Shown here: piece by piece, positions 4,218-16,662 of the stretch
Position numbering within the stretch: position 1 is the first letter of the stretch
Layout of the letters: each line of letters opens with the position of its first letter
DNA from: an uncultured Pseudomonadota bacterium
GTDB lineage: Bacteria > Myxococcota_A > Polyangia > Fen-1088
NCBI GenBank assembly: GCA_963847705.1
Contig: CAWKBC010000033.1
Span: 1-19,182 of the forward strand
Direction of reading: 5' to 3'
Length of the DNA stretch: 19,182 bases
Program-made: the position numbers and the translations under genes
Notes under the pieces: generated by a model
Seen by the model: only the letters and a program-made list of their open reading frames with translations
The model's database searches: none
What the model was told of the DNA's origin: nothing

Positions 4218-4263
4218 GTGCGTTTCGCGACGGCGCTCCAGCCAGCGAGCGTGCGAGTTGCAA
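4218..4263. promoter_or_regulatory. Candidate upstream activator sites for a sigma-54 enhancer-binding protein
   Basis: Two related imperfect palindromes, GTGCGTTTCGCGA (4218-4230) and GTGCGAGTTGCAA (4251-4263), 33 bp apart and centred about 108 and 75 bp upstream of the predicted start site. Confidence 0.45.
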
Positions 4264-4305
4264 TCCTCAGCTCGACCGGAGGGCCGATTGGCGCCCCGAT
4301 CGGGC

Positions 4306-4321
4306 AGGCACGAATCATGCG
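4306..4321 (+). promoter_or_regulatory. Sigma-54 (-24/-12) promoter of the kdp operon
   Basis: AGGCACGAATCATGCG: GG(4307-4308)-N10-GC(4319-4320) with the GGCACG core of the TGGCACG-N4-TTGC consensus. A GAFTGA-containing activator is encoded in the same cluster. Confidence 0.75.
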
Positions 4322-4334
4322 TTAGCTCCCGGCC

Positions 4335-4418
4335 ATGAAGGACTTGCTCTACCTCGCGATCACCGTCGGGTTCTTCGCGATCGCATGGTTCTACGTCAGG
4401 GCCGCTGAGCGGCTCTAA
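4335..4418 (+). CDS. 27-aa single-TM peptide upstream of kdpF ([27 protein letters not shown])
   Basis: Translated by hand (ATG 4335, TAA 4416-4418); hydrophobic core, GC-rich third positions and a KdpF-like ERL tail. Too short for the ORF track. Confidence 0.75.
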
Positions 4419-4430
4419 GGGAGGCTCACG

Positions 4431-4520
4431 ATGTCGCTCGACTACGGACTGGGCGCGATTTTGGCGCTCCTATTGACCGGCTATCTGTTCTACGCGCTCG
4501 TGCGCCCCGAACGGTTCTGA
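4431..4520 (+). CDS. kdpF: K+-transporting ATPase subunit F ([29 protein letters not shown])
   Basis: 29 aa with the signature YLxYALxRPERF; strong SD AGGGAGG at 4418-4424; immediately upstream of kdpA. Not in the ORF track. Confidence 0.93.
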
Positions 4521-4541
4521 CGGCGCGAAAGGGATCGAAAC

Positions 4542-6263
4542 ATGACGTTCGTTGGGTGGATTCAGGTACTCGTCTTCTTCGCGCTGATCCTGGCGGTCAC
4601 CAAGCCGATCGGGGCTTACATGTTTCGGGTGTTCGAGGGCGGCGACGCGCCGCTCGGCCGCGGGCTGGGCCGGATCGAGAACGCCCTCTATCGCCTTTTT
4701 GGCGTCGATCCGCGGCAGGAGCAGGACTGGAAGCAGTACGCCTTCGCGCTGCTGGCGTTCAGCGCCTTCGGCGTGATCGTGACCTACGCGATCCAGCGGT
4801 TGCAGGGGCACTTGCCCTTCAACCCACAGCACTTTGCCGGTGTCCCGCACGAGCTCGCTTTCAACACGGCCGCCAGCTTCAGCACCAACACCAACTGGCA
4901 GGCCTACAGCGGCGAGTCGACGATGAGCTACCTGACCCAGATGGCCGGTCTGGCCTGGCACAACTTCACCTCGGCGGCGGCGGGGATCTGTGTGGCCCTG
5001 GCGGTCGCACGCGGCTTCACCCGGCGCGGCGGCCCCGGCGGCGGCAAGCACCTGGGGAACTTCTGGGTCGATCTCAACCGGGGGATCCTGTACGTGCTGC
5101 TGCCGCTCAGCTTCATCTTCGCGCTGGTGCTGGTCTCCCAGGGGGTGATTCAGAACCTCAAGCCGTACCTCGACGTCACCACTCTGGAAGGCGGCAAGCA
5201 GACGCTGGCGCTCGGGCCGGTCGCCTCGCAGGAGGCGATCAAGCAGCTCGGCACCAACGGGGGCGGCTTCTTCAACGCCAACGCGGCCCATCCGTTCGAG
5301 AACCCGACGCCGTTCACCAACCTCATCTCGCTGTTTCTCATCTTCATGATCCCGGCGGGGCTGACCTACACCTACGGCCGGATGGCCAGGGATGCCAAGC
5401 AGGGGTGGGCGCTGCTGGCCGCGATGAGCGTGCTCTTCTTCGCCGGTGTCGCCGTCTGCTATCACGCCGAAACTGCCGGCAACAGCGCGTTCGCCGGCCT
5501 GCCCATTCACCAGGCGCTCGGCAACATGGAGGGGAAGGAGGCGCGCTTCGGCGTCGCCGCCTCCACCCTCTACGCCACGGTCACCACCGACGCCTCCTGC
5601 GGCGCGGTGAACGCCATGCACGACAGCTTCACGCCGCTGGGCGGCCTCGTCCCGCTGGTGAACATCCAGCTGGGCGAGGTGATCTTCGGCGGCGTCGGCG
5701 CGGGCCTCTACGGAATTCTGGTCTTCGTCGTCCTGGCCGTCTTCATCGCCGGCCTGATGGTCGGCCGCACGCCCGAGTACCTCGGCAAGAAGATCGAGGC
5801 GCGCGAGATCCAGCTGGGGATGTTCTACGTGCTGGTCTTCCCGATCATCATCCTCGGCTTCTCGGCCTGGGCGGCGGTCTCGCCGCTCGGAACCTCCTCC
5901 TTGAACAACAACGGCGCGCACGGCCTCTCCGAGCTCCTCTACGCCTACTCGAGCGGCGCCGGGAACAACGGCTCCGCGTTCGCCGGCCTCAACGCCAACA
6001 CGCCCTTCTGGAACGTCACGCTGGCCTTCACCATGCTGGCCGGGCGCTTCCTGATGATCATCCCGGCGCTCGGCATCGCCGGCTTGATGGTGGACAAGAA
6101 GGTGGTTCCGCCCTCTTTGGGAACGTTCCCCACCAACGGCCCTCTCTTCACCACGCTGCTGGTGATGGTGGTGGTGATCGTCGGGGCGCTCACCTTCTTC
6201 CCGGCGCTCTCCCTCGGCCCGATCGTCGAGCATTTCCAGGCCCTGCACGGAAAGGTCTTCTAG
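4542..6263 (+). CDS. kdpA: K+-transporting ATPase subunit A
   Basis: 573 aa; selectivity-filter motifs [20 protein letters not shown] and GNNGSA; also [11 protein letters not shown] and LGPIVEH. Confidence 0.98.
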
Positions 6264-6265
6264 CC

Positions 6266-8332
6266 ATGTCCTCCAAAGCACAATCTGTTGGGCTGTTCGA
6301 TCGCACGATCCTGCGCCAGGCCGTGGGCGAGAGCCTCCGCAAGCTCTCGCCGCGAATGGTGGCCAAGAACCCGGTCATGTTCGTGGTCGAGGTCGGCAGC
6401 GCGCTGACCACCTTGTTGGTCGTCCGCGACCTCGTCGTTCACGCGGCCGACCATCCGCCGCTCTGGTTCACCGGCGCGGTCTCGATCTGGCTCTGGTTCA
6501 CCGTGCTCTTCGCCAACTTCGCCGAGGCGATCGCCGAGGGGCGCGGCCGCGCCCAGGCCGACACGCTCCGCAAGATGCGCAAGGAGACGATGGCGAGGCG
6601 GCTGGTCGACGACGGCAAGCACGACGGCCGCGAAGAGGCCGTGCCGTCCTCGCTGCTGCGCAAGGGCGATCTGGTGGTCGTGGAGGCCAACCAGCTGGTC
6701 CCCGGCGACGGCGAGATCGTCGAAGGGATCGCCTCCGTCGACGAGTCGGCCATCACCGGCGAGTCGGCCCCGGTCATCCGCGAAAGCGGCGGCGATCGCT
6801 CGGCCGTCACCGGGGGCACCAAGGTGCTCTCCGACCGGATCGTGGTGCGGATCGTCAGCGATCCCGGGGAGTCGTTCCTCGATCGCATGATCTCGCTGGT
6901 CGAGGGGGCCGCCCGCCAGAAGACGCCCAACGAGATCGCGCTGCACATCCTGCTGGTCGGTCTCACCATCGTCTTCCTGCTCGCCTGCGTGACGCTGGTG
7001 CCGCTGGCCAAGTACTCCAGCCTGGCGCTCTCGGCCACGGCGATCGTGGCGCTCCTGGTCTGCCTGATTCCCACCACCATCGGCGGCCTGCTGTCGGCGA
7101 TCGGGATCGCCGGGATGGATCGCTTGCTCAAGAAGAACGTCATCGCCACCAGCGGTCGCGCCGTCGAAGCGGCCGGCGACGTCGACACGCTGCTGCTCGA
7201 CAAGACCGGCACCATCACCCATGGCAACCGGATGGCCACCGAGTTCCTGCCGATGCCGGGCGTGCGCCTCGAGGCCCTCGCCGAGGCGGCGCTCCTGGCC
7301 AGCCTGGCCGACGAGACGCCCGAGGGGCGCTCGATCGTGACGCTGGCGCACGAGAAGTATGCCTCCGCGGCGGTGGCGTCCGCCGTCGCGCAGCAGGGGA
7401 CCTTCGTCCCCTTCACGGCCCAGACGCGCATGAGCGGCCTCGATCTGGCGGGGCGGCAGATTCGCAAGGGGGCCGTCGATTCGATCGGCAAGTACGTGGT
7501 GGCGGCAGGCGGCAAGGCGCCGGCCGAGATGGCCGAGATCGCCGCCCGCATCGGCGACGGGGGCGGCACGCCGCTGGCCGTCGCCGACGGCGACGTGATC
7601 GTGGGCATCATTCACCTCAAGGACGTGGTGAAGGCCGGCATCCGCGAGCGGTTCCAGCGCTTCCGGGCGATGGGGATCCGCACCGTCATGATCACCGGTG
7701 ACAACCCGCGCACCGCGGCCGCCATCGCCCGCGAGGCCGGCGTCGACGACTTCCTGGCCGAGGCGACGCCCGAGGCGAAGATGCGCCTCATCAAGGACGA
7801 GCAGGCCAAGGGGAAGCTGGTGGCGATGACTGGCGACGGCACCAACGACGCGCCGGCCCTGGCGCAGGCCGACGTCGGCGTGGCCATGAACAGCGGCACG
7901 CAGGCGGCGAAGGAGGCCGGCAACATGGTCGACCTCGACTCGAACCCCACCAAGCTGCTGGAGATCGTGGAGGTCGGCAAGCAGCTGCTCATGACGCGCG
8001 GAACACTGACCACGTTCTCGATCGCCAACGACGTGGCCAAGTACTTCGCCATCCTGCCGGCGCTGTTCATGGTGGTGTTCCCGGAGATCGCGCCGCTCAA
8101 CGTGATGCACCTGGCGTCGCCCTACTCGGCCATCCTGTCGGCGGTCATCTTCAACGCCCTCATCATCGTCCTGCTCATCCCGCTGGCGCTGCGCGGGGTG
8201 CGTTACCGGCCGCTCGGCGCGGCCACCATCCTGCGCCGCTCGCTGCTCATCTACGGCGTCGGCGGCGTCATCGCGCCGTTCGTCGGCATCAAGCTCATCG
8301 ATCTCGCCCTCGAAGCGCTCCACCTGGTCTGA
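6266..8332 (+). CDS. kdpB: K+-transporting P-type ATPase subunit B
   Basis: True start at ATG 6266 (MSSKAQ), 2 nt after the kdpA stop. Motifs [39 protein letters not shown] and [10 protein letters not shown]. Confidence 0.98.
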
Positions 8333-8340
8333 GGCTCACC

Positions 8341-8961
8341 ATGCGAAAAGAAATCCTGATCGCTCTCCGCGCCACCCTCGTCACCCTCATCCTGACGGGC
8401 ATCCTCTACCCGCTGGCCACCACCGGCGCCGCCGAGGCCCTGTTCGGCGAACGCGCCAACGGCAGCTTGGCCCGCAACGAATCGGGCCAGGTGGTCGGCT
8501 CGGAGTTGATCGGCCAGGCCTTCGCCTCGCCGGCCTACCTCCAGGGGCGCCCCTCGGCGGCCGGCAACAACGGCTACGACGCGACCTCCTCCTCGGGCTC
8601 GAACTTCGGGACCACCTCGAAGAAGCTGCGTGACCGGGCCGCCGCCGACGTGGCCCGCCTGCAGAAGGAGAACCCCGCCGCGCCGCTGCCGATCCCGGAC
8701 GCGCTGGTCACCGCCTCGGCCAGCGGGCTCGACCCCGATCTGTCGCCCGAGGCCGCGCTCTGGCAGGCCCCGCGCATCGCCCGCGCGCGCAACGTGGCCG
8801 AGGACCGCATCCGCGCGGTCATCGAGAACCGCGCCCAGGGGCGCGATCTCGGCTTCCTGGGCGAGCCGCGGATCAACGTCCTCGAGCTGAATCTGGCCCT
8901 GGATCAGCAATTCGGCCGCCCCTTGCCCCAGCCCGCCACCGCCGCCGTCGGAACGAGGTAG
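8341..8961 (+). CDS. kdpC: K+-transporting ATPase subunit C
   Basis: Motifs ANGSL, GSELIGQ, GRPSA, SGSN, VTASASGLDP and GEPRINVLELNLALD. Confidence 0.97.
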   Translation: MRKEILIALRATLVTLILTGILYPLATTGAAEALFGERANGSLARNESGQVVGSELIGQAFASPAYLQGRPSAAGNNGYDATSSSGSNFGTTSKKLRDRAAADVARLQKENPAAPLPIPDALVTASASGLDPDLSPEAALWQAPRIARARNVAEDRIRAVIENRAQGRDLGFLGEPRINVLELNLALDQQFGRPLPQPATAAVGTR

Positions 8962-8974
8962 GATTCCCACGTCC

Positions 8975-10342
8975 ATGAGGGGAGCTGATTCTTCGGTCGC
9001 CGGCGGTCTGCGCATCCTGATCGTCGACGACGAGAAAAACATCCGGGCGACGCTGGCCGTCTGTGTGGAAGGGCTCGGGGCCGAGGCGCTGGCCGTCGGC
9101 ACCGGCGACGCAGCCCTGGCCGCGATCGGCCGGCAGCCCTATGACCTGGCCTTCGTCGACCTGGCGCTGGGGACCGAGAGCGGCCTCGACCTGCTCCCCA
9201 AGCTGCTGGGCGAGGAGGCCAGCCTGGCCATCGTCCTCATCACCGCTTACGGCACCATCGAGACGGCCGTGGAGGCGATGCGGCGGGGCGCCTGGGACTA
9301 CCTGCCCAAGCCGTTCACGCCGGCGCAGATTCGCCACCTGATCGATAAGTTCAAGACGCAGCGGCACCTGACCGCCCGGGTCGCGGAGCTCGAGCGGCGG
9401 CTGGCCGAGGAGGTCCCCGACGTCGAGATCGCCAGCAAGTCGGCGGCCATGCACGCCGTGCTGGACATGGCGGCGCGGGTCGCCGCCACCGACGCCCCGG
9501 TCCTGATCACCGGGGAGAACGGAACCGGCAAGAGCATCCTGGCGCGGGCCATCCACCGCCAGAGCCCGCGGAACGCCGCGCCGTTCATCGTCACCAACTG
9601 CCCCACGCTGTCGGAGGAGCTGCTGGCCAGCGAGCTGTTCGGCCACGTGAGAGGTGCGTTCACCGGCGCGGTCCGCGATCAGGCCGGCCGGGTCGAGGTG
9701 GCCGAAGGGGGGACGCTGTTCCTCGACGAGATCGGGGAGATCCCGCCGTCGCTGCAGAGCAAGCTGCTCCGTTTTCTGCAAGAGAAGGACTTCGAGCGGG
9801 TCGGGGAGACCCGCACCCGCCACGGCAACGTGCGCATCATCGCCGCCACCAACCGGGACCTGGAGGCCGACGTCAAGGCCGGGCGTTTTCGGGAGGATCT
9901 CTTCTATCGTTTGAACGTGGTGGAGGTGCGGATGCCGCCCTTGCGCGAGCGGCGCGAGGACATCCTGCCGCTGGCCCGCGCCTTTCTGAGCAGCTTCACC
10001 CGGGCCACCCGCCCGATGGCGCCGGAGATCTCGGCCGCCGCGGCGATGGCGCTCGAGCAGCACGACTGGCCCGGCAACGTCCGCGAGCTGCGCAACACCA
10101 TCGAGCGGATCGCCATCCTCTGGCCGACCTCGGTCGTCGAGCCGGAGGCCTTGCCGAACCGGGTGCCGCGGGCGGCCCAGCGCCGGCCCACCGTCGGCGG
10201 CGACTTCACCGTCGACGACGTCGAACGCGAGCACATCCAGTCGGTGCTGGAGCGGGTCCCCAAGGTCGAGGACGCCGCCGCGCTCCTGGGGATCGACGCC
10301 TCGACGCTCTGGCGGAAACGCAAGAAGTACGAAGGGACGTAG
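8975..10342 (+). CDS. Sigma-54-dependent NtrC-family response regulator (AlgB-like): REC-AAA+-Fis HTH
   Basis: REC domain (ILIVDDE, FVDL, LPKP); Walker A GENGTGKS; [13 protein letters not shown]; Walker B FLDEIGE; WPGNVREL; C-terminal [15 protein letters not shown]. Confidence 0.95.
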
Positions 10343-10345
10343 GTC

Positions 10346-11623
10346 GTGAGCCGGCCGGGCGAGCTCAATCGCCTCAACAATCGCCCGGAGGACTTCCTGG
10401 AGATGCTCCGGCGCGCCAAGCGCGGCCGGCTCAAGCTCTACATCGGGTTCGCCGCCGGCGTCGGCAAGACCTACCGGATGCTGGAGGAGGCGCACGCGCT
10501 CAAGAAGCGCGGCGTCGACGTGGTGCTGGGGTTCGTGGAGACGCATGGCCGCGCCGAGACCCAGGCCCTCATCGAAGGGCTCCCGGAGGTCCCACGCAAG
10601 GTGACGCAATACCGCGGCGTCGCCCTGGAAGAGATGGACCTGGAAGGGTTGATCGAACGCCACCCGGAGATCACGGTGGTCGACGAGATCGCGCACACCA
10701 ACGTCCCCGGGAGCCGCAACCGCCGCCGCTACCAGGACGTGCTGGCGCTGCTCGACGCCGGGATCAACGTCATCGGCGCCTTCAACATCCAGCACCTCGA
10801 GAGCCTGAACGACGTCGTCCAGCGGGTGACCGGCGTGGCCATCCGGGAGACGGTCCCTGACAGCTTTCTCAAGCGGGCCGACCAGGTGGTGAACCTGGAC
10901 CTGGCGGTCGAGGATCTGATCGAACGGCTGCAGGCGGGGAAGATCTACGCCGCCGACAAGATCCCCTGGGCGCTGGAGCACTTCTTCACCGACCGCCACC
11001 TGGCCACGCTGCGGGAGCTGGCGCTGCGCGAGGTGGCCGAGAGCCTCGACCGCGGTGACCGCCGCCGGAACGAGGAGGCGGAGCGGGCCGACGGAGAGTC
11101 GGTGCGCGGCGCCTCGGGCGGGGGCCTCGGGCGGGTGATGGTCTGTATGTCGTCGTTCCCCACCCGCGCCAGCGCCCTCTTGCGCCGGGGCTCACGCTTC
11201 GCCGGGCGCCTCAACACCGACTGGTTCGTGGTCTATGTCGAGACGCCACGGGAGGCGCCGCACCTCATCGACGCCGAGGCGCAGCGCCACCTCCTGGCCA
11301 ACGCCGAGAGCGCGCGCGAGCTCGGGGCGGAGGTGGTTCACCTCAAGGCCGACGACCCGGTCCCCGCCCTGCTCGACTTCGCCCGCTCGCACGGCGTCGG
11401 GCAGATCATCGTCGGGCGCTCCCGGGCCGCCTGGTGGCGGCAGCTGCTGGGCCGGACCATCGCCATGCGGCTGGTCAAAGAGGCGGACGGCCTCGACATC
11501 CTGATCGCCTCCATCGACGAGGAGCCGGCTCGTCCCAGCCCCGGACCGCTCAGGGAGCCGGCGCCCACCGCCGCCGCGACGGACGGCGCCGAGAGGAACG
11601 GCGCGCGGGGGTCACGACCATGA
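10346..11623 (+). CDS. kdpD: Stand-alone KdpD N-terminal domain + USP domain protein (no TM or histidine-kinase domains)
   Basis: GRLKLYIGFAAGVGKTYRML (Walker A), ETHGR, VVDEIAHTN (Walker B), RYQDV, NIQHLESLND, LRELALR, then a USP domain (VMVCMS...IIVGRS). It ends in a low-complexity tail with no TM helices. Confidence 0.93.
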   Translation: MSRPGELNRLNNRPEDFLEMLRRAKRGRLKLYIGFAAGVGKTYRMLEEAHALKKRGVDVVLGFVETHGRAETQALIEGLPEVPRKVTQYRGVALEEMDLEGLIERHPEITVVDEIAHTNVPGSRNRRRYQDVLALLDAGINVIGAFNIQHLESLNDVVQRVTGVAIRETVPDSFLKRADQVVNLDLAVEDLIERLQAGKIYAADKIPWALEHFFTDRHLATLRELALREVAESLDRGDRRRNEEAERADGESVRGASGGGLGRVMVCMSSFPTRASALLRRGSRFAGRLNTDWFVVYVETPREAPHLIDAEAQRHLLANAESARELGAEVVHLKADDPVPALLDFARSHGVGQIIVGRSRAAWWRQLLGRTIAMRLVKEADGLDILIASIDEEPARPSPGPLREPAPTAAATDGAERNGARGSRP

Positions 11624-13464
11624 CCCTGCGCGCGAAGATCCTCCTGGCGCAGACGCCGCTGGCCGGGGCGCTCCTGCTCATCGCCATCCTGTCGGCGCTC
11701 ACCAGCGCGACGCTGGGGCGCAGCGCCGCCTCGATCCTGCAGGACAACTACCGCAGCGTGCTGGCCGCCGAACAGATGAAGGAGGCGCTGGAGAGGATCG
11801 ACAGCGCCGCCATGTTCATCGTCGCCGGCGAGCGGACGCGCGGGCTGGCGCAAGCCGAACAGAATATCGCGCGCTTCGAGCAACAGCTGGCGATCCAGCA
11901 GAGCAACATCACCGAGCGGGGGGAGCCGGAGGCGACCACCGCGCTCCGCCGCGCCTGGAGCGACTACCACGGCGCCTACGATCGCTTCGTCACCGGGACC
12001 GATCACGCGGCGCTGGAGGCCAACTATTTCAAGACCATGAACCCGCTCTTCGTCGCCACCAAGGACGCGGCGAACCGGATCCTCAACCTCAATCAGGACG
12101 CGATGGTCCGCAAGCGCGATCAGGCGCGCCGGGCCTCCGAGCGCTCCAACGCGGTCATGATCGCCACCGCCCTGCTGGCGTCGCTCATCGGCCTGGCTGC
12201 GTCGACGGTGCTGACCAACCGGATCCTCCGCCCGCTCTCGGTCCTGGGGCAGGCCGCGCGGCGCCTCGGAGAAGGGGACATGGAGGTCCGCGCCAAGGTG
12301 AGCCGGCAGGACGAGATCGGCACCCTGGCCCGCGACTTCAACCTGATGGCCGATCGCCTGGCCCAGTACCGCCACAGCTCGCTGGGGGAGCTGCTGCAGG
12401 CGCAGCAGCAGGCGCAGGCGGCGATCGACAGCCTCCCCGATCCGGTGCTGATCTTCGATCTGGAGGGGCGCCTCCTCAGCGGCAACCGCGCCGCCGAGCG
12501 CATCCTGCACGTCAGCGTCGAGGAGTCGACGGGCGAGCCGATGGCCCGCGCCGAGCCCCAGATCAGAACGGTGGTCGAGCGGGTGCGGCAAAAAGCCCTG
12601 GCCGACGAAGCCGGCTACGCGCCGGCTGGCTTCGACGAGGCGGTGCGGGTCAGCGTGTCGAGCAGCGAGGGGAACGATCTGTTCCTGCTGCCGCGCGCCT
12701 CCCGCGTCACCACCGAACAGGGGGGGCTGGTGGGCGTCACCATCATCCTGCAGGACGTCACCCGGGTGCTCCGTTTCGACGAGCTGAAGAACAACCTGGT
12801 CGCCACCGTCGCGCACGAGTTCCGGACGCCGCTCACCTCGCTGCGCATGGCGGTGCACCTGTGCGCCGAGGAGAGCGTGGGCCCCCTCAACGACAAGCAG
12901 CTCGATCTGATGCAGGCGGCGCGACAGGACACCGAGCGGCTGCAGCAGATCGTCGACGACCTCCTGGATCTGTCGCGCATCCAGTCGGGGCGGATGGAGC
13001 TGCACCGCCGCCACGTCAGCGCCGAGTCGCTGGTGCGAGAGGCCGTGCTCCCCTTCGCGGCCGCCGCGCGCGACAAGACCGTCACGCTCAAGACCGAGCT
13101 GTTCCCGGGGTTGGGCGAGATCGACGTCGACACCGAGCGGATGCAGCTGGTCCTGGCCAACCTGATCGGCAACGCCATCCGCTACACGCCGGCCGGAGGA
13201 ACGGTCTTCGTGCGGGCGCGCCCCACCGACAGCGCGACGATCCTGGAGGTCGAGGACACCGGCCCCGGCATCCCCAAGCAGTACCAGACCGCCGTGTTCG
13301 ACAAGTTCTTCCGCATGCCGGGCAGCGGCTCGGGCGGCGCGGGCCTCGGCCTCTACATCGCCAAGGAGATCAGCATGGCTCACGGCGCCCGCCTCAGCCT
13401 CCAGAGCGAAGCCGGTCACGGGAGCCTGTTCTCGATCGAGCTGCCTGCGGCCAGCGCCGCCTAG
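11620..13464 (+). CDS. Membrane sensor histidine kinase (KinB-like): TM-helical extracytoplasmic sensor-TM-HAMP-PAS-HisKA-HATPase
   Basis: The start ATG overlaps the kdpD stop (ATGA, 11620-11623). HAMP DEIGTLARDFNLMA; PAS AAIDSLPDPVLIFD; H-box AHEFRTPLTS; N box NLIGNAIRY; G1 DTGPGI; G2 GAGLGL. Confidence 0.95.
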   Translation: MTLRAKILLAQTPLAGALLLIAILSALTSATLGRSAASILQDNYRSVLAAEQMKEALERIDSAAMFIVAGERTRGLAQAEQNIARFEQQLAIQQSNITERGEPEATTALRRAWSDYHGAYDRFVTGTDHAALEANYFKTMNPLFVATKDAANRILNLNQDAMVRKRDQARRASERSNAVMIATALLASLIGLAASTVLTNRILRPLSVLGQAARRLGEGDMEVRAKVSRQDEIGTLARDFNLMADRLAQYRHSSLGELLQAQQQAQAAIDSLPDPVLIFDLEGRLLSGNRAAERILHVSVEESTGEPMARAEPQIRTVVERVRQKALADEAGYAPAGFDEAVRVSVSSSEGNDLFLLPRASRVTTEQGGLVGVTIILQDVTRVLRFDELKNNLVATVAHEFRTPLTSLRMAVHLCAEESVGPLNDKQLDLMQAARQDTERLQQIVDDLLDLSRIQSGRMELHRRHVSAESLVREAVLPFAAAARDKTVTLKTELFPGLGEIDVDTERMQLVLANLIGNAIRYTPAGGTVFVRARPTDSATILEVEDTGPGIPKQYQTAVFDKFFRMPGSGSGGAGLGLYIAKEISMAHGARLSLQSEAGHGSLFSIELPAASAA

Positions 13465-13595
13465 CGTCGTCGCCTCGAACCTGGTGAGTCTCAGTCCTGG
13501 CGGACGTTGCCGAGGTGGCCCAGGAACCTTCGGACACCCACGGCCGAGCGCTCGCTTGTACACCGGACCCTCCATCGAGGTTAGACTTGGCCCCC

Positions 13596-14348
13596 ATGCC
13601 GTCCGAAGACGATCGCCCCACCGGCCTCGGCCGCCCCGACCGGGCGGCGCAGGCGCGGGTGCACGATGCGCGAGAGCGGGCGATCGCCACGCTGTCCGAG
13701 GGGTTCGCCAACGACGCGCTCGACGTGGAAGAGTTCGAGCGCCGGGTGACGCTGGCGCACACCTCCGACTCGCCCCAGGAGATCGCCGCCCTCACCTCCG
13801 ATCTGCCGGCCTCGACGACCGCGCTCGCCAAGGCCACGGTCGCCCTGGCGCCGGCGACCGCCGAGGGCGGCGGCGCGCCCGAGACCGTCTACGCGATCTT
13901 CGGCGGCGTCGACCGCCGCGGGACCTGGAACGTGCCGCGCCGCTGGCGGGTGGTCGCCGCCTTCGGCGGTGCGCAGCTCGACCTGCGCGAGGCGCGCTTT
14001 CCCACCGGCGTCATCGACCTGGAGGTCAAGGCCGTCTTCGGCGGCGTGCAGATCATCGTTCCGCCCGGCCTGGCGGTCGAGGTGCACGGCACGGCCATCA
14101 TGGGCGGCTTCCAGAACGTGAACCGCGCCCCGGCGCACCCCGATCCGGACGCGCCGCTCCTGCGCATCCATGGCCTCGCCCTCATGGGGGGCGTGGACAT
14201 CACCATGCGGCTCGCCGGAGAGAGTGAACGGCAGGCGCACCGTCGGCGAAAGGTCGAGTCTCGCCAGGAACGGCGCGCGCTGCGCGACGAGCAACGCGCG
14301 GACCGGCGCCACCAGCGCGCCCTCGATCGCGTCCGCGACGAGCGCTAG
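13596..14348 (+). CDS. DUF1707 (SHOCT-like) + LiaF/DUF2154-like beta-domain protein
   Basis: N-terminal ARERAIATLSEGFANDALDVEEFERRV...LTSDLP; C-terminal repeats AIFGG/AAFGG/AVFGG/AIMGG/ALMGG with LDLREA and IIVPPG. I chose ATG 13596 as the start. Confidence 0.8.
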   Translation: MPSEDDRPTGLGRPDRAAQARVHDARERAIATLSEGFANDALDVEEFERRVTLAHTSDSPQEIAALTSDLPASTTALAKATVALAPATAEGGGAPETVYAIFGGVDRRGTWNVPRRWRVVAAFGGAQLDLREARFPTGVIDLEVKAVFGGVQIIVPPGLAVEVHGTAIMGGFQNVNRAPAHPDPDAPLLRIHGLALMGGVDITMRLAGESERQAHRRRKVESRQERRALRDEQRADRRHQRALDRVRDER

Positions 14349-14366
14349 ACGGCGCATCAGGCCATC

Positions 14367-15575
14367 GTGCATCTGGTTCCGCTGCTCACGGTCGCGATCG
14401 CAGCGGGCATCCTTTACGGAATCAACCGGCGCCTCGGCGGCCTTCCCGCCACCATCGGCGTGACGGTCTGGGCGCTCCTGGCCTCGCTGGCGCTGGTGGC
14501 GGCCGGCGCGCTCGGCTCGCCCGTGCATGACTTCGCGCGCCAACTGGTGGCGCGGCTGCATTTCCGCGAGACGTTGCTCGATCGGATGCTCTCGCTGCTG
14601 CTGTTCGCGGGGGCCCTGGAGGTCGACCTCGACGCGCTCCTCGGTGAGAAGGCGCTGGTCGCGCTGCTGGCGACCGTCGGCGTGGTGATCTCCACGGTGA
14701 TCGTCGGGGGAATGACCCTGGTGGTGGCGCGCCTCTGCGGTCTCCCGCTCTCTCTCCGCCAAGGCCTGCTGTTCGGAGCGATCGTCTCGCCGACCGATCC
14801 GATCGCTGTCCTCGGCATGCTCCGCACCGCACGCGCGCCCAAGCAGCTCGAAGTCCAGATGGCCGGCGAGTCGCTGTTCAACGACGCGGTCGGTGTCGTC
14901 GTCTTCTTTGCCATGCTCGAAATCGCCGCCGGCCACACCGTCGGCGTCGGCGCCGTCACTCTGTCGTTCCTCGAGCAGGTCGGCGGCGGCGCCGCTCTGG
15001 GCCTGGGCGCCGGGTGGCTCGCCAGGAAGATCCTTCGTTCGATCGACCGCGCCGGCCCCCACCTTGCCGTCGTGGTGACGCTGGTGATCGCGGTCGGACT
15101 GAACCCGCTGGCCGAGCATCTCCACGCCTCTGGCTATCTGGCCATCATCATCGCTGGCCTCATGCTGGGCGGTCTGCCGACCCGCTCCCACCTTCATCAC
15201 TTCTGGGAGATCGTCGACGAAGTCCTCAACGTCGTGCTTTTCACCATGGTCGGGTTCGTGGTTCTGGTGATCCCGTTCACCGCGCGCGTCATCGGCGCGG
15301 GCCTGCTGGCGGTCCCGGTGGTGCTCCTCGCGCGCCTGGTCGTGGTCGGTGGAACGCTGGCCCCTTTCGCGCGGCGCTTGAGCTTGCCGCCGCGCTCGAT
15401 CGCCATCCTCACCTGGGGAGGTCTGCGCGGTGGCCTGGCGATCGCGCTCGCCCTCTCGGTCGGACCGGAGATCTCGGCCGCCCCGGTGCTGCTGGCGATG
15501 ACCTACGTGGTGGTCCTCTTCTCGATCGTCGTGCAGGGGTTGACCTTCAGGCGCCTGCTGCCACCTCCGACGTAA
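14367..15575 (+). CDS. CPA1/NhaP-family Na+(K+)/H+ antiporter
   Basis: Multi-TM protein with LLFAGAL, GAIVSPTDPIAV, AGESLFNDAVGVV and TWGGLRGGLAIALAL. Confidence 0.92.
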   Translation: MHLVPLLTVAIAAGILYGINRRLGGLPATIGVTVWALLASLALVAAGALGSPVHDFARQLVARLHFRETLLDRMLSLLLFAGALEVDLDALLGEKALVALLATVGVVISTVIVGGMTLVVARLCGLPLSLRQGLLFGAIVSPTDPIAVLGMLRTARAPKQLEVQMAGESLFNDAVGVVVFFAMLEIAAGHTVGVGAVTLSFLEQVGGGAALGLGAGWLARKILRSIDRAGPHLAVVVTLVIAVGLNPLAEHLHASGYLAIIIAGLMLGGLPTRSHLHHFWEIVDEVLNVVLFTMVGFVVLVIPFTARVIGAGLLAVPVVLLARLVVVGGTLAPFARRLSLPPRSIAILTWGGLRGGLAIALALSVGPEISAAPVLLAMTYVVVLFSIVVQGLTFRRLLPPPT

Positions 15576-15585
15576 TATCCACCGC

Positions 15586-16662
15586 ATGCGCAGCTTTGCT
15601 TCTGTCCGCGTCCCTGTCCCCGTCGTCGTCCGTCTCCTCATCCCGGTCCTTTTGGGCCTGGGGTTCGGCGCCTGTGTGATCCCGCCCGGGCCGGCGACCC
15701 TCCCCGCCTCCGGCGCCTCCGGCCAGCCGCACGCCAGCGTGACCGCCCCGCGCCTGAAGGGGGAGAACCCGTTCAAGGACGCCTACTGGGTGCTCGACGC
15801 CGAATCGAACGCCCGCCGAACCGCAGACCAGTGGCGAAGCTCGCGTCCCGAGGACGCGGTTGCGATGGACAAGATCGCCGGTCAGCCCTCGGCGGCCTGG
15901 ATGGGGAACTGGTTCCCGCAAATCGAGATGGCGGTGAAGACCTACGTCTGGAGCCGCACCCGCGGCGGCGGCCTGCCGGTGATGATCCTTTACAACCTCC
16001 CCTTTCGCGACTGCGGCGGCTACTCGGCCGGCGGCGCCGGCTCGGCGGCCGGCTATCGCAAGTGGATCGACAACGTCGCAGCCGGGGTCGGGTCGCGCCG
16101 CGCGGTGTTCGTGCTCGAGCCCGACGGCCTGCCGCTCCTGACCAAGTGCCTCAAACCCGACAAGCAGCAGGAACGGGTGGCGATGATTCGCTACGCCGTC
16201 GAGAAGCTGACCTCGCTGCCGGGCGCCGCCGTCTACATCGACGCCGGCCACTCGGCCTGGGTGCCGGCGGCCGACATGGCGCCACGCCTGAAGGCGGCCG
16301 GGATCGATCTCGCCGATGGCTTCGCGCTCAACGTCTCGAACTACCAGGCGACGCCCGATCTCCTGAAGTACGGACATACGCTGTCGGCGCTGCTCGACGG
16401 CAAGCACTTCATCATCGACACCGGCCGCAACGGCAACGGCGCGCCGCAAGGGGTCTCCGGCGACGACGAGCGTGCCTGGTGCAACCCCGACGGACGCGCC
16501 CTCGGCACGCCCCCCACCACCAACACCGGCGATCCGCTGTGCGACGCGTTTTACTGGCTCAAGCCACCGGGCGAGTCCGACGGCCGCTGCAACCACGGAC
16601 CGGCCGCGGGCAACTGGTGGCCCCAAAAGGCGCTGGAGATGGCCCGCAACGCCAAGTGGTGA
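15586..16662 (+). CDS. Glycoside hydrolase family 6 (endoglucanase-like), predicted lipoprotein
   Basis: Motifs YNLPFRDC, VLEPDGL, YIDAGHSAW, GFALNVSNY, IDTGRNGNG, WCNP and WLKPPGESDG. A hydrophobic N-terminus ends in FGAC (Cys30). Confidence 0.92.
   Translation: MRSFASVRVPVPVVVRLLIPVLLGLGFGACVIPPGPATLPASGASGQPHASVTAPRLKGENPFKDAYWVLDAESNARRTADQWRSSRPEDAVAMDKIAGQPSAAWMGNWFPQIEMAVKTYVWSRTRGGGLPVMILYNLPFRDCGGYSAGGAGSAAGYRKWIDNVAAGVGSRRAVFVLEPDGLPLLTKCLKPDKQQERVAMIRYAVEKLTSLPGAAVYIDAGHSAWVPAADMAPRLKAAGIDLADGFALNVSNYQATPDLLKYGHTLSALLDGKHFIIDTGRNGNGAPQGVSGDDERAWCNPDGRALGTPPTTNTGDPLCDAFYWLKPPGESDGRCNHGPAAGNWWPQKALEMARNAKW

Follow-up and report, generated by a model that had tools for sequence, protein, structure and literature searches.

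In Escherichia coli the potassium-pump operon kdpFABC is controlled by KdpD/KdpE at a sigma-70 promoter, and the kdp locus described here raises the question of what governs the pump when different regulators stand beside it. The locus lies on contig CAWKBC010000033.1 (C33) of assembly GCA_963847705.1, from an uncultured bacterium placed by GTDB in the Myxococcota_A (6.1 Mb, 84.7% complete; G000 below), and the stretch analysed, of 19,182 nucleotides, is referred to as the window. Here kdpFABC is followed by genes for a sigma-54 enhancer-binding regulator, a soluble KdpD-N/Usp protein and a HAMP-PAS histidine kinase, an arrangement from which an earlier note, made from the sequence alone, had proposed RpoN-dependent control through an AlgB/KinB-like pair. 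The gene order proved to be as described, with all open reading frames (ORFs) of the locus intact, all domains present and the catalytic motifs of all three regulators kept, and RpoN-type kdp control by this activator and kinase, without KdpE, is supported by the sequence. The explanation that we consider probable, with room for doubt, is a sigma-54-type Kdp locus of the kind represented by DVU3334 of Desulfovibrio vulgaris, in which a kinase acts on the activator, the activator acts through twin boxes on RpoN promoters, and a soluble KdpD shuts the pump. At low K+ the membrane kinase, which on comparative signal may itself sense K+ through its periplasmic bundle, likely phosphorylates the activator; this likely binds the twin upstream boxes, opening RpoN promoters at several potassium genes, and the soluble KdpD likely phosphorylates KdpB and so turns the pump off. 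The elements on which this explanation draws are the following.

4218-4230, no strand assigned: distal predicted enhancer box GTGCGTTTCGCGA, of the TTGCA-N3-TGCAA type, scoring 9.5 bits and lying 88 nt before the sigma-54 site
4251-4263, no strand assigned: proximal predicted enhancer box GTGCGAGTTGCAA, 13.4 bits, 33 bp from the distal box
4306-4321, forward strand: sigma-54 -24/-12 element AGGCACGAATCATGCG, 9 of 12 consensus positions matched, start predicted near 4332
8975-10342, forward strand: sigma-54 enhancer-binding response regulator of the Kdp/AlgB clade (100/99), with REC, Sigma54_activat and HTH_8 domains
10346-11623, forward strand: soluble KdpD-N/Usp protein (PF02702, PF00582; no transmembrane segment), likely an atypical serine kinase inhibiting KdpB
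11620-13464, forward strand: membrane histidine kinase, with transmembrane (TM) segment, periplasmic four-helix bundle, TM segment, HAMP, PAS, HisKA and HATPase

The GG-N10-GC promoter noticed earlier upstream of the operon is present; judged from the window alone it is at chance level, with 13 matches at two mismatches or fewer against 15.45 expected, but it is conserved across relatives. Conservation was assessed in 60 kdpA loci of at most 20 kb each, made up of 40 of the 42 matches outside G000 among 300 sampled genomes of the phylum and 20 loci hand-picked from the family. A consensus score of at least 9/12 was reached before kdpA in 16 of the 18 loci with the regulator trio (the window included), compared with four of 23 kdpDE loci, from which L036, mis-binned as kdpDE, was left out, and with 9.4% of 3000 random windows. 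In a set of 31 short family loci, a score of at least 9 was reached by 25 and a score of 8 by four, and the one genome with a full-length KdpD scored 6. The survey of kdp loci that had been suggested as a check shows a motif that tracks regulator type, and a chance origin of the promoter, plausible from the window alone, is ruled out by this conservation and the kdpDE controls. A consensus for integration host factor was searched for between boxes and promoter, and none was found. The mis-binned locus, from Parabacteroides distasonis (NZ_OY725790.1), carries kdpABC, a short kdpD-N, a family kinase and a strong sigma-54 site, with a helix-turn-helix (HTH) remnant upstream; a paralogous kinase and an intact activator occur on another record (L035).

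De novo expectation-maximisation on 28 promoters returned the palindrome TTGCA-N3-TGCAA, and the published core of the DVU3334 site, TTACATTTTGTAA, scores 11.8 bits with this motif. A best box of at least 10 bits was found in 12 of 16 hand-chosen held-out loci, in none of the 23 kdpDE loci and in 1.5% of the background. With spacing left free at 20-60 bp, a box pair was present in 41 of 43 promoters (28 of them the training set), and in 39 of the 41 the boxes stand 30-33 bp, or three helical turns, apart; the proximal box lies 53-56 nt upstream of the -24 element in 13 promoters and 64-67 nt upstream in 19. Forty further loci, enriched for short KdpD and drawn from samples centred on Syntrophobacterales, planctomycete and acidobacterial genomes, brought the total to 100. 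When these were scanned throughout, a sigma-54 site with a twin score of at least 18 occurred in 23 of 27 loci with the activator (17 of 21 if the training genomes are set aside) and in three of 37 KdpE loci, all three being second operons that hold the dead activator paralog described below; it was also seen in five of nine loci where the family kinase is the sole regulator visible, and in five of 27 where no regulator is visible. Since kin are not independent, these counts are patterns and not p-values, and the pattern is of a promoter design that tracks the activator across phyla. In two loci (L298, L311) kdpD-N, kinase and activator stand together, pump genes are not seen, and the other strand carries a sigma-54 promoter with twin boxes.

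The absence of kdpE from the window, also pointed out earlier, was confirmed. With four KdpE proteins of related genomes as queries, tblastn found no KdpE orthologue in the 84.7%-complete G000, whose best OmpR-type matches are 35-44% identical, compared with 60-67% among the four true KdpE proteins. A canonical kdpDE elsewhere in the genome, the possibility that the earlier note had raised against its own proposal, was sought in the same assembly and not found: the single DUF4118 match is to a kinase of at most 367 amino acids without a match to the TM/GAF part of KdpD, and a full-length KdpD with TM, GAF and kinase parts plus an OmpR-family KdpE was not found there. The window shares with the E. 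coli-type system the same pump and homologous KdpD-N and Usp domains, and differs from it in having no TM/GAF part of KdpD, no KdpE orthologue in the assembly and a kinase core outside the KdpD clade (100/100); kdpDE loci, unlike the window, are without boxes. Three relatives (L092, L095, L096) have a second kdp operon with genes for a KdpE-like regulator and a kinase upstream of it in divergent orientation, an arrangement absent from G000; both control types, KdpE-like and sigma-54, can coexist.

The activator has GAFTGA at residue 227 and intact Walker A and B motifs, and is ~48% identical to pseudomonad AlgB-type proteins. The kinase, the start of which overlaps the kdpD-N stop, is a relative of KinB and not a derivative of the KdpD kinase clade. 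Its periplasmic part was modelled as a four-helix bundle (predicted local distance difference test score 94.4) with PcaY_PP as the best fold match (Z 16.7, root-mean-square deviation 2.0 over 133 residues), and the KinB sensor was not within the top 50 fold matches; the Pfam KinB_sensor domain, PF16767, had no match in the kinase of the window even with a cut-off of E 1, compared with E 4.5e-33 for the kinase of L185. Residues N43, Y44, S46, T98, E102 and N158 are invariant among 27 sequences of the bundle, and a modelled bundle with invariant polar residues is compatible with direct sensing of a small ligand, for which only the targets suggest K+. The kinship to AlgB/KinB proposed earlier is supported by both trees (below).

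The core of this rewiring is not new here and has been in print since 2011. According to the accessible parts of Rajeev 2011 (PMC3333781), DVU3334 regulates its own kdpFABC, with binding upstream shown by DNA-affinity-purification chip (DAP-chip) analysis (12.8-fold enrichment, site at -149, predicted sigma-54 promoter at -44); DVU3336 combines a K+ sensor with UspA domains, and DVU3335 is the kinase. The accessible part of Kazakov 2015 (PMC4641369) places D. vulgaris kdp in the sigma-54 regulome and lists DVU3334, with its GAFTGA, under potassium uptake. The view that no mechanistic characterisation of such wiring exists is not supported, given the DAP-chip result for DVU3334 at kdpFABC (PMC3333781). 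Like DVU3334/3335/3336, the window combines a regulator of REC, AAA and DNA-binding domains carrying GAFTGA with a separate sensory-box kinase (PMC3333781), and it shares with that system the KdpD-sensor/UspA protein, the predicted sigma-54 promoter and the fitting site core (PMC3333781, PMC4641369). Its GAFTGA regulator lies in the kdp cluster, the KdpD-sensor/Usp and kinase genes are separate, and, at the level of sequence, a sigma-54 promoter and a DVU3334-like palindrome lie upstream of kdpF. It differs, as far as the published description extends, in the twin phased boxes, in gene order, and in a wider predicted regulon across Myxococcota and samples of other phyla (PMC3333781). Two loci with the D. 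vulgaris gene order (L155, L157) fall within the same activator and kinase clades. By analogy with the D. vulgaris precedent, activator binding and RpoN dependence would be expected in the window. What is new is drawn from comparisons and is predictive, namely the cis code, the regulon and the AlgB link, and a precise, testable cis code is the value added to the known wiring.

What else the activator may control was assessed by ranking 3755 sigma-54-like sites in G000 by twin score, with the following sites at the head.

Rank 1, twin score 33.0: KimA homologue on C14, a KimA-like K+ importer (L097 1544-3640, equal to G000:C14:259543-261639) with the best twin-box promoter of the genome
Rank 2, twin score 22.9: the kdp promoter of the window (in the training set)
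Rank 3, twin score 22.7: gene on C30 for a 131-aa membrane protein with a single TM segment and several cysteines (L098 1197-1592, G000:C30:322196), with a paralog at C27:310681-311067
Rank 4, twin score 20.7: second kdp operon, on C30
Rank 5, twin score 19.8: PII-like gene, probably a false call
Rank 6, twin score 17.6: degenerate activator, the dead paralog (L005 14311-15198, G000:C30, reverse strand), immediately ahead of the second kdp operon, and itself preceded by a twin-box sigma-54 promoter

We infer from these sites a regulon in which the second kdpFABC, kimA, the 131-aa protein and the dead paralog would be under the activator, extending control to KimA and an unnamed membrane protein. 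PDB 6s3k was the sole match of the KimA homologue (E 3.9e-58). Among the 30 best kimA loci from 60 genomes, two were too short and 28 were scored; 23 of the 28 have twin boxes (score at least 18) against 0.1% of the background, and kimA often adjoins activator or kdpD genes. Strong twin boxes accompany a weak or missing -24/-12 site in the kimA promoters L114, L115, L117-L119, L121-L124 and L126, and several box-only promoters share, by eye, another element, CGAAACA ... TTACTG. Bacillus KimA is riboswitch-controlled; riboswitch control of kimA and kdp was rejected here, as no Rfam match other than one tRNA came from 15 sources, among them the window and 13 kimA loci. The 131-aa protein occurs mostly in Myxococcota and belonged to no known family in a family search; its gene has twin boxes in 21 of 25 loci (one too short), compared with 0.33% of the background, and kdp or kimA genes lie within 1.5 kb in 10 of the 25.

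The dead paralog, found in G000, L092, L095, L096 and partly in L094, is without REC, GAFTGA loop and Walker A/B, keeps the lid and HTH, and is the sole other match to the activator HTH in G000; such a protein would exert negative feedback by competing for the boxes. In L083 (G043) a paralog of REC and HTH without AAA+ precedes a second kdp operon, and this cut-down form suggests an independent origin of dummy activators. Boxes were also sought at the gene for a Kup (KUP/HAK) transporter, ~3 kb from the second kdp operon (L005 about 4650-6669, forward strand), and none were found.

The link to Pseudomonas AlgB/KinB required sequences from elsewhere: KinB gave none over the cut-off among 301 in the class sample of small genomes and no plasmid match, so AlgB/KinB were taken from metagenome contigs, in which a helix-motif scan yielded 120 loci, three with kdp genes. 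As these were chosen on the HTH, HTH likeness is by construction, and outgroups were limited to G000 paralogs and KdpD. In a tree of 32 activator proteins, five AlgB-type rows (100/100) are nested within the clade of Kdp activators (100/99), from the base of which two inner branches (95/89 and 98/96) separate them, and monophyly of the Kdp rows without AlgB, a group defined post hoc on a first tree, is only marginally rejected (approximately unbiased test, p-AU 0.048). In the kinase tree, from which five rows were dropped, the cores join KinB with support of 94/92 and stand away from KdpD; p-AU for nesting relative to KinB is 0.153. The L185 kinase has KinB_sensor and matches PDB 3kkb. With the myxobacterial matrix, and no matched control, a sigma-54 site with a twin score of at least 15 was found in 44 of 53 AlgB-type loci, compared with six of 37 KdpE loci that reach a score of 15 under a laxer scan; the AlgB-type boxes stand for the most part 107-110 nt upstream, in the divergent promoter next to algB. 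For 27 of 52 loci the midpoints of the twin boxes fall 232-264 bp before algB, and the accessible part of PMC8599809 gives an AlgB DAP-seq summit 226 bp upstream of PAO1 algB (53.8-fold, with many stronger peaks intragenic), which is consistent with the box position and is not proof.

The Pseudomonas pair resembles that of the window in activator clade, kinase clade (94/92) and cytoplasmic domain order, in a nearly identical recognition helix and in the same twin-box and sigma-54 design beside algB, and differs in that AlgB/KinB loci are without kdp genes and that the window kinase has no PF16767 and is only about 27-32% identical to KinB. Pseudomonad AlgB likely descends from the same activator family and reads the same boxes. 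A larger proposal, which we find rather doubtful at present and offer tentatively, is that the activator/kinase pair belongs to an old cross-phylum K+-sensing family running a K+ regulon via twin TGCA-N3-TGCA boxes, of which AlgB/KinB would be a pump-less descendant still using this DNA code and perhaps still responding to K+ or ionic status. If true, the input of KinB, for which we know of no established signal, would be K+ or ionic status, and AlgB RpoN targets could be read from the boxes; tying AlgB/KinB to potassium regulators would give this well-studied pair a concrete binding site and a candidate signal. A literature search that left most subscription papers outside found no paper on the regulon or on an AlgB/KinB-potassium link, and an AlgB box may already be published (PMC8599809 Fig. 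2, possibly PMC8041468); the accessible part of PMC8041468 holds no text on an AlgB motif. For MXAN_0172, considered as a possible myxobacterial orthologue, no potassium link was found in the text consulted.

The soluble KdpD-N/Usp protein has no membrane segment (hydropathy maximum 1.24) and no TM/GAF or dimerisation and catalytic (DHp-CA) part, and keeps Walker A G-X5-GKT, Walker B DE and the adenine arginine, its adenine aromatic residue being Tyr, not Trp. In the accessible text of Silberberg 2024 (PMC11018627), the KdpD-N domain phosphorylates E. coli KdpB at S162, the TGES serine, and short KdpD/Usp proteins are serine kinases inhibiting KdpB, that of Deinococcus being stimulated by c-di-AMP. 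Myxococcota are there mainly short-KdpD, and transcription control is left open for species without a known kinase, for which the window locus offers a candidate (PMC11018627). The window protein is like the short KdpD of D. geothermalis in consisting of KdpD-N and Usp only and in the Walker A, Walker B and arginine just named, and the two systems share the KdpB TGES and a diadenylate cyclase in the genome; the tyrosine at the E. coli W39 position sets it apart from this reference (PMC11018627). By this analogy, and with two diadenylate-cyclase (DAC) genes over the cut-off in G000, phosphorylation of KdpB by KdpD under c-di-AMP would be expected, and a role of the soluble KdpD as a serine kinase that brakes the pump is more likely than one as input to the histidine kinase, on evidence that is not decisive. 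The earlier three-protein circuit keeps its activator/kinase switch, and its relay becomes doubtful, since short KdpD inhibits KdpB and the kinase is distant in nine of 36 loci; with short KdpD as a brake, the circuit would be a two-component switch and a brake. An actual relay, with KdpD-N/Usp as an input module that binds the cytoplasmic part of the kinase and tunes the kinase in response to ATP, c-di-AMP or K+, possibly braking the pump as well, is in our judgement unlikely. It is favoured by adjacency: besides the gene overlap in the window, the kinase gene comes directly after kdpD-N in 22 of the 36 loci, three more have the two side by side in reversed order (the two are far apart in nine and otherwise placed in two), the pair stands divergent from the pump in nine Polyangia loci, and the accessible text of Rajeev 2011 reads DVU3336/3335 as a split kinase (PMC3333781). 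Set against this, the kinase lies at least 3.6 kb upstream of kdpD-N in the nine far-apart loci, no KdpD-kinase fusion occurs in the 36 (no search for longer fused forms was made), KinB-type pairs are found in loci without KdpD, the kinase has its own periplasmic bundle with the six invariant residues, and short KdpD has a different demonstrated job (PMC11018627). A complex prediction for the kinase HAMP-PAS-DHp dimer with KdpD-N/Usp scored 0.00, which counts neither way.

Two further alternatives concern what the switch is for and how it works. The pair might be a general osmotic or envelope-stress switch, with K+ transporters as its main targets here and only stress genes kept in Pseudomonas, and AlgB-type loci with the same promoter design before non-transporter genes, a predicted target without known family (the 131-aa protein) and a Parabacteroides kinase paralog away from kdp would agree with that, as would the binding of other regulators to the D. 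vulgaris kdp promoter (PMC3333781, accessible part); we think it quite improbable, as three of the top four predicted G000 targets are K+ uptake operons, the fourth often adjoins such genes, and the Kup gene is without boxes. It is also conceivable that the activator can do without RpoN at some of its targets or at all of them, the -24/-12 match being secondary. AlgB activates algD without RpoN, the window site alone is at chance level, about half of the twin-box kimA promoters have no good -24/-12 site, and the few kimA loci with both elements imply that some targets may not use RpoN. The intact GAFTGA and ATPase motifs of the activator, the conservation of the sigma-54 site at phased distances from the boxes and the listing of D. 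vulgaris kdp in the sigma-54 regulome (PMC4641369, accessible part) make this very improbable. A DVU3334-type locus with twin boxes and RpoN promoters is preferred, and several observations weigh against it. The window promoter is three positions off consensus, and its predicted start leaves ~3 nt before a small ORF at 4335; the window itself helped to train the motif, the loci include kin that are not independent, and the held-out set was hand-chosen. Trio loci L072 and L091 have no sigma-54 site before kdpA, L067 and L072 have no twin boxes, twin boxes and a sigma-54 site of at least 8 occur together in only 11 of 27 kimA loci, and the rank 5 site, before the PII-like gene, is probably another activator's. 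Likeness to DVU3334/DVU3335 is drawn from published descriptions and the site core, not from protein alignment; activator binding, start site and K+ response in this organism are predictions; G000 is incomplete; in the three relatives named above a KdpE-like gene stands close to a second kdp operon; and the frequent placement of kdpD-N directly before the kinase, often moving with it away from the pump, favours the relay.

The remaining genes of the locus are those of the pump and a small ORF.

4335-4418, forward strand: small hydrophobic 27-aa ORF before kdpF, conserved, with no Pfam or NCBIfam match
4431-4520, forward strand: kdpF (PF09604, E 1.1e-10; TIGR02115)
4542-6263, forward strand: kdpA (PF03814, E 1.5e-242)
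6266-8332, forward strand: kdpB, P-type ATPase, ATG start, DKTGT and the TGES serine kept
8341-8961, forward strand: kdpC (PF02669, E 6.3e-67)

The 27-aa ORF, the product of which resembles peptides of the KdpZ type, is kept in trio loci and kdpDE loci alike, and would be nearly leaderless if transcription begins at 4332. G000 has a single rpoN gene, a single KdpD-N domain and, on C30, the second kdpFABC operon, which like the 27-aa ORF and the twin upstream boxes was absent from the earlier note. Fourteen RNA runs, compared with contigs only, gave word shares of 0.05-0.08, and the four examined were uninformative for start or level. Elsewhere in the window, and not tied to kdp, a SpoU methylase lies upstream of the locus, and a DUF1707/LiaF-like protein, a Na+/H+ exchanger and a GH6 glycoside hydrolase lie 3' of it (13515-16662).

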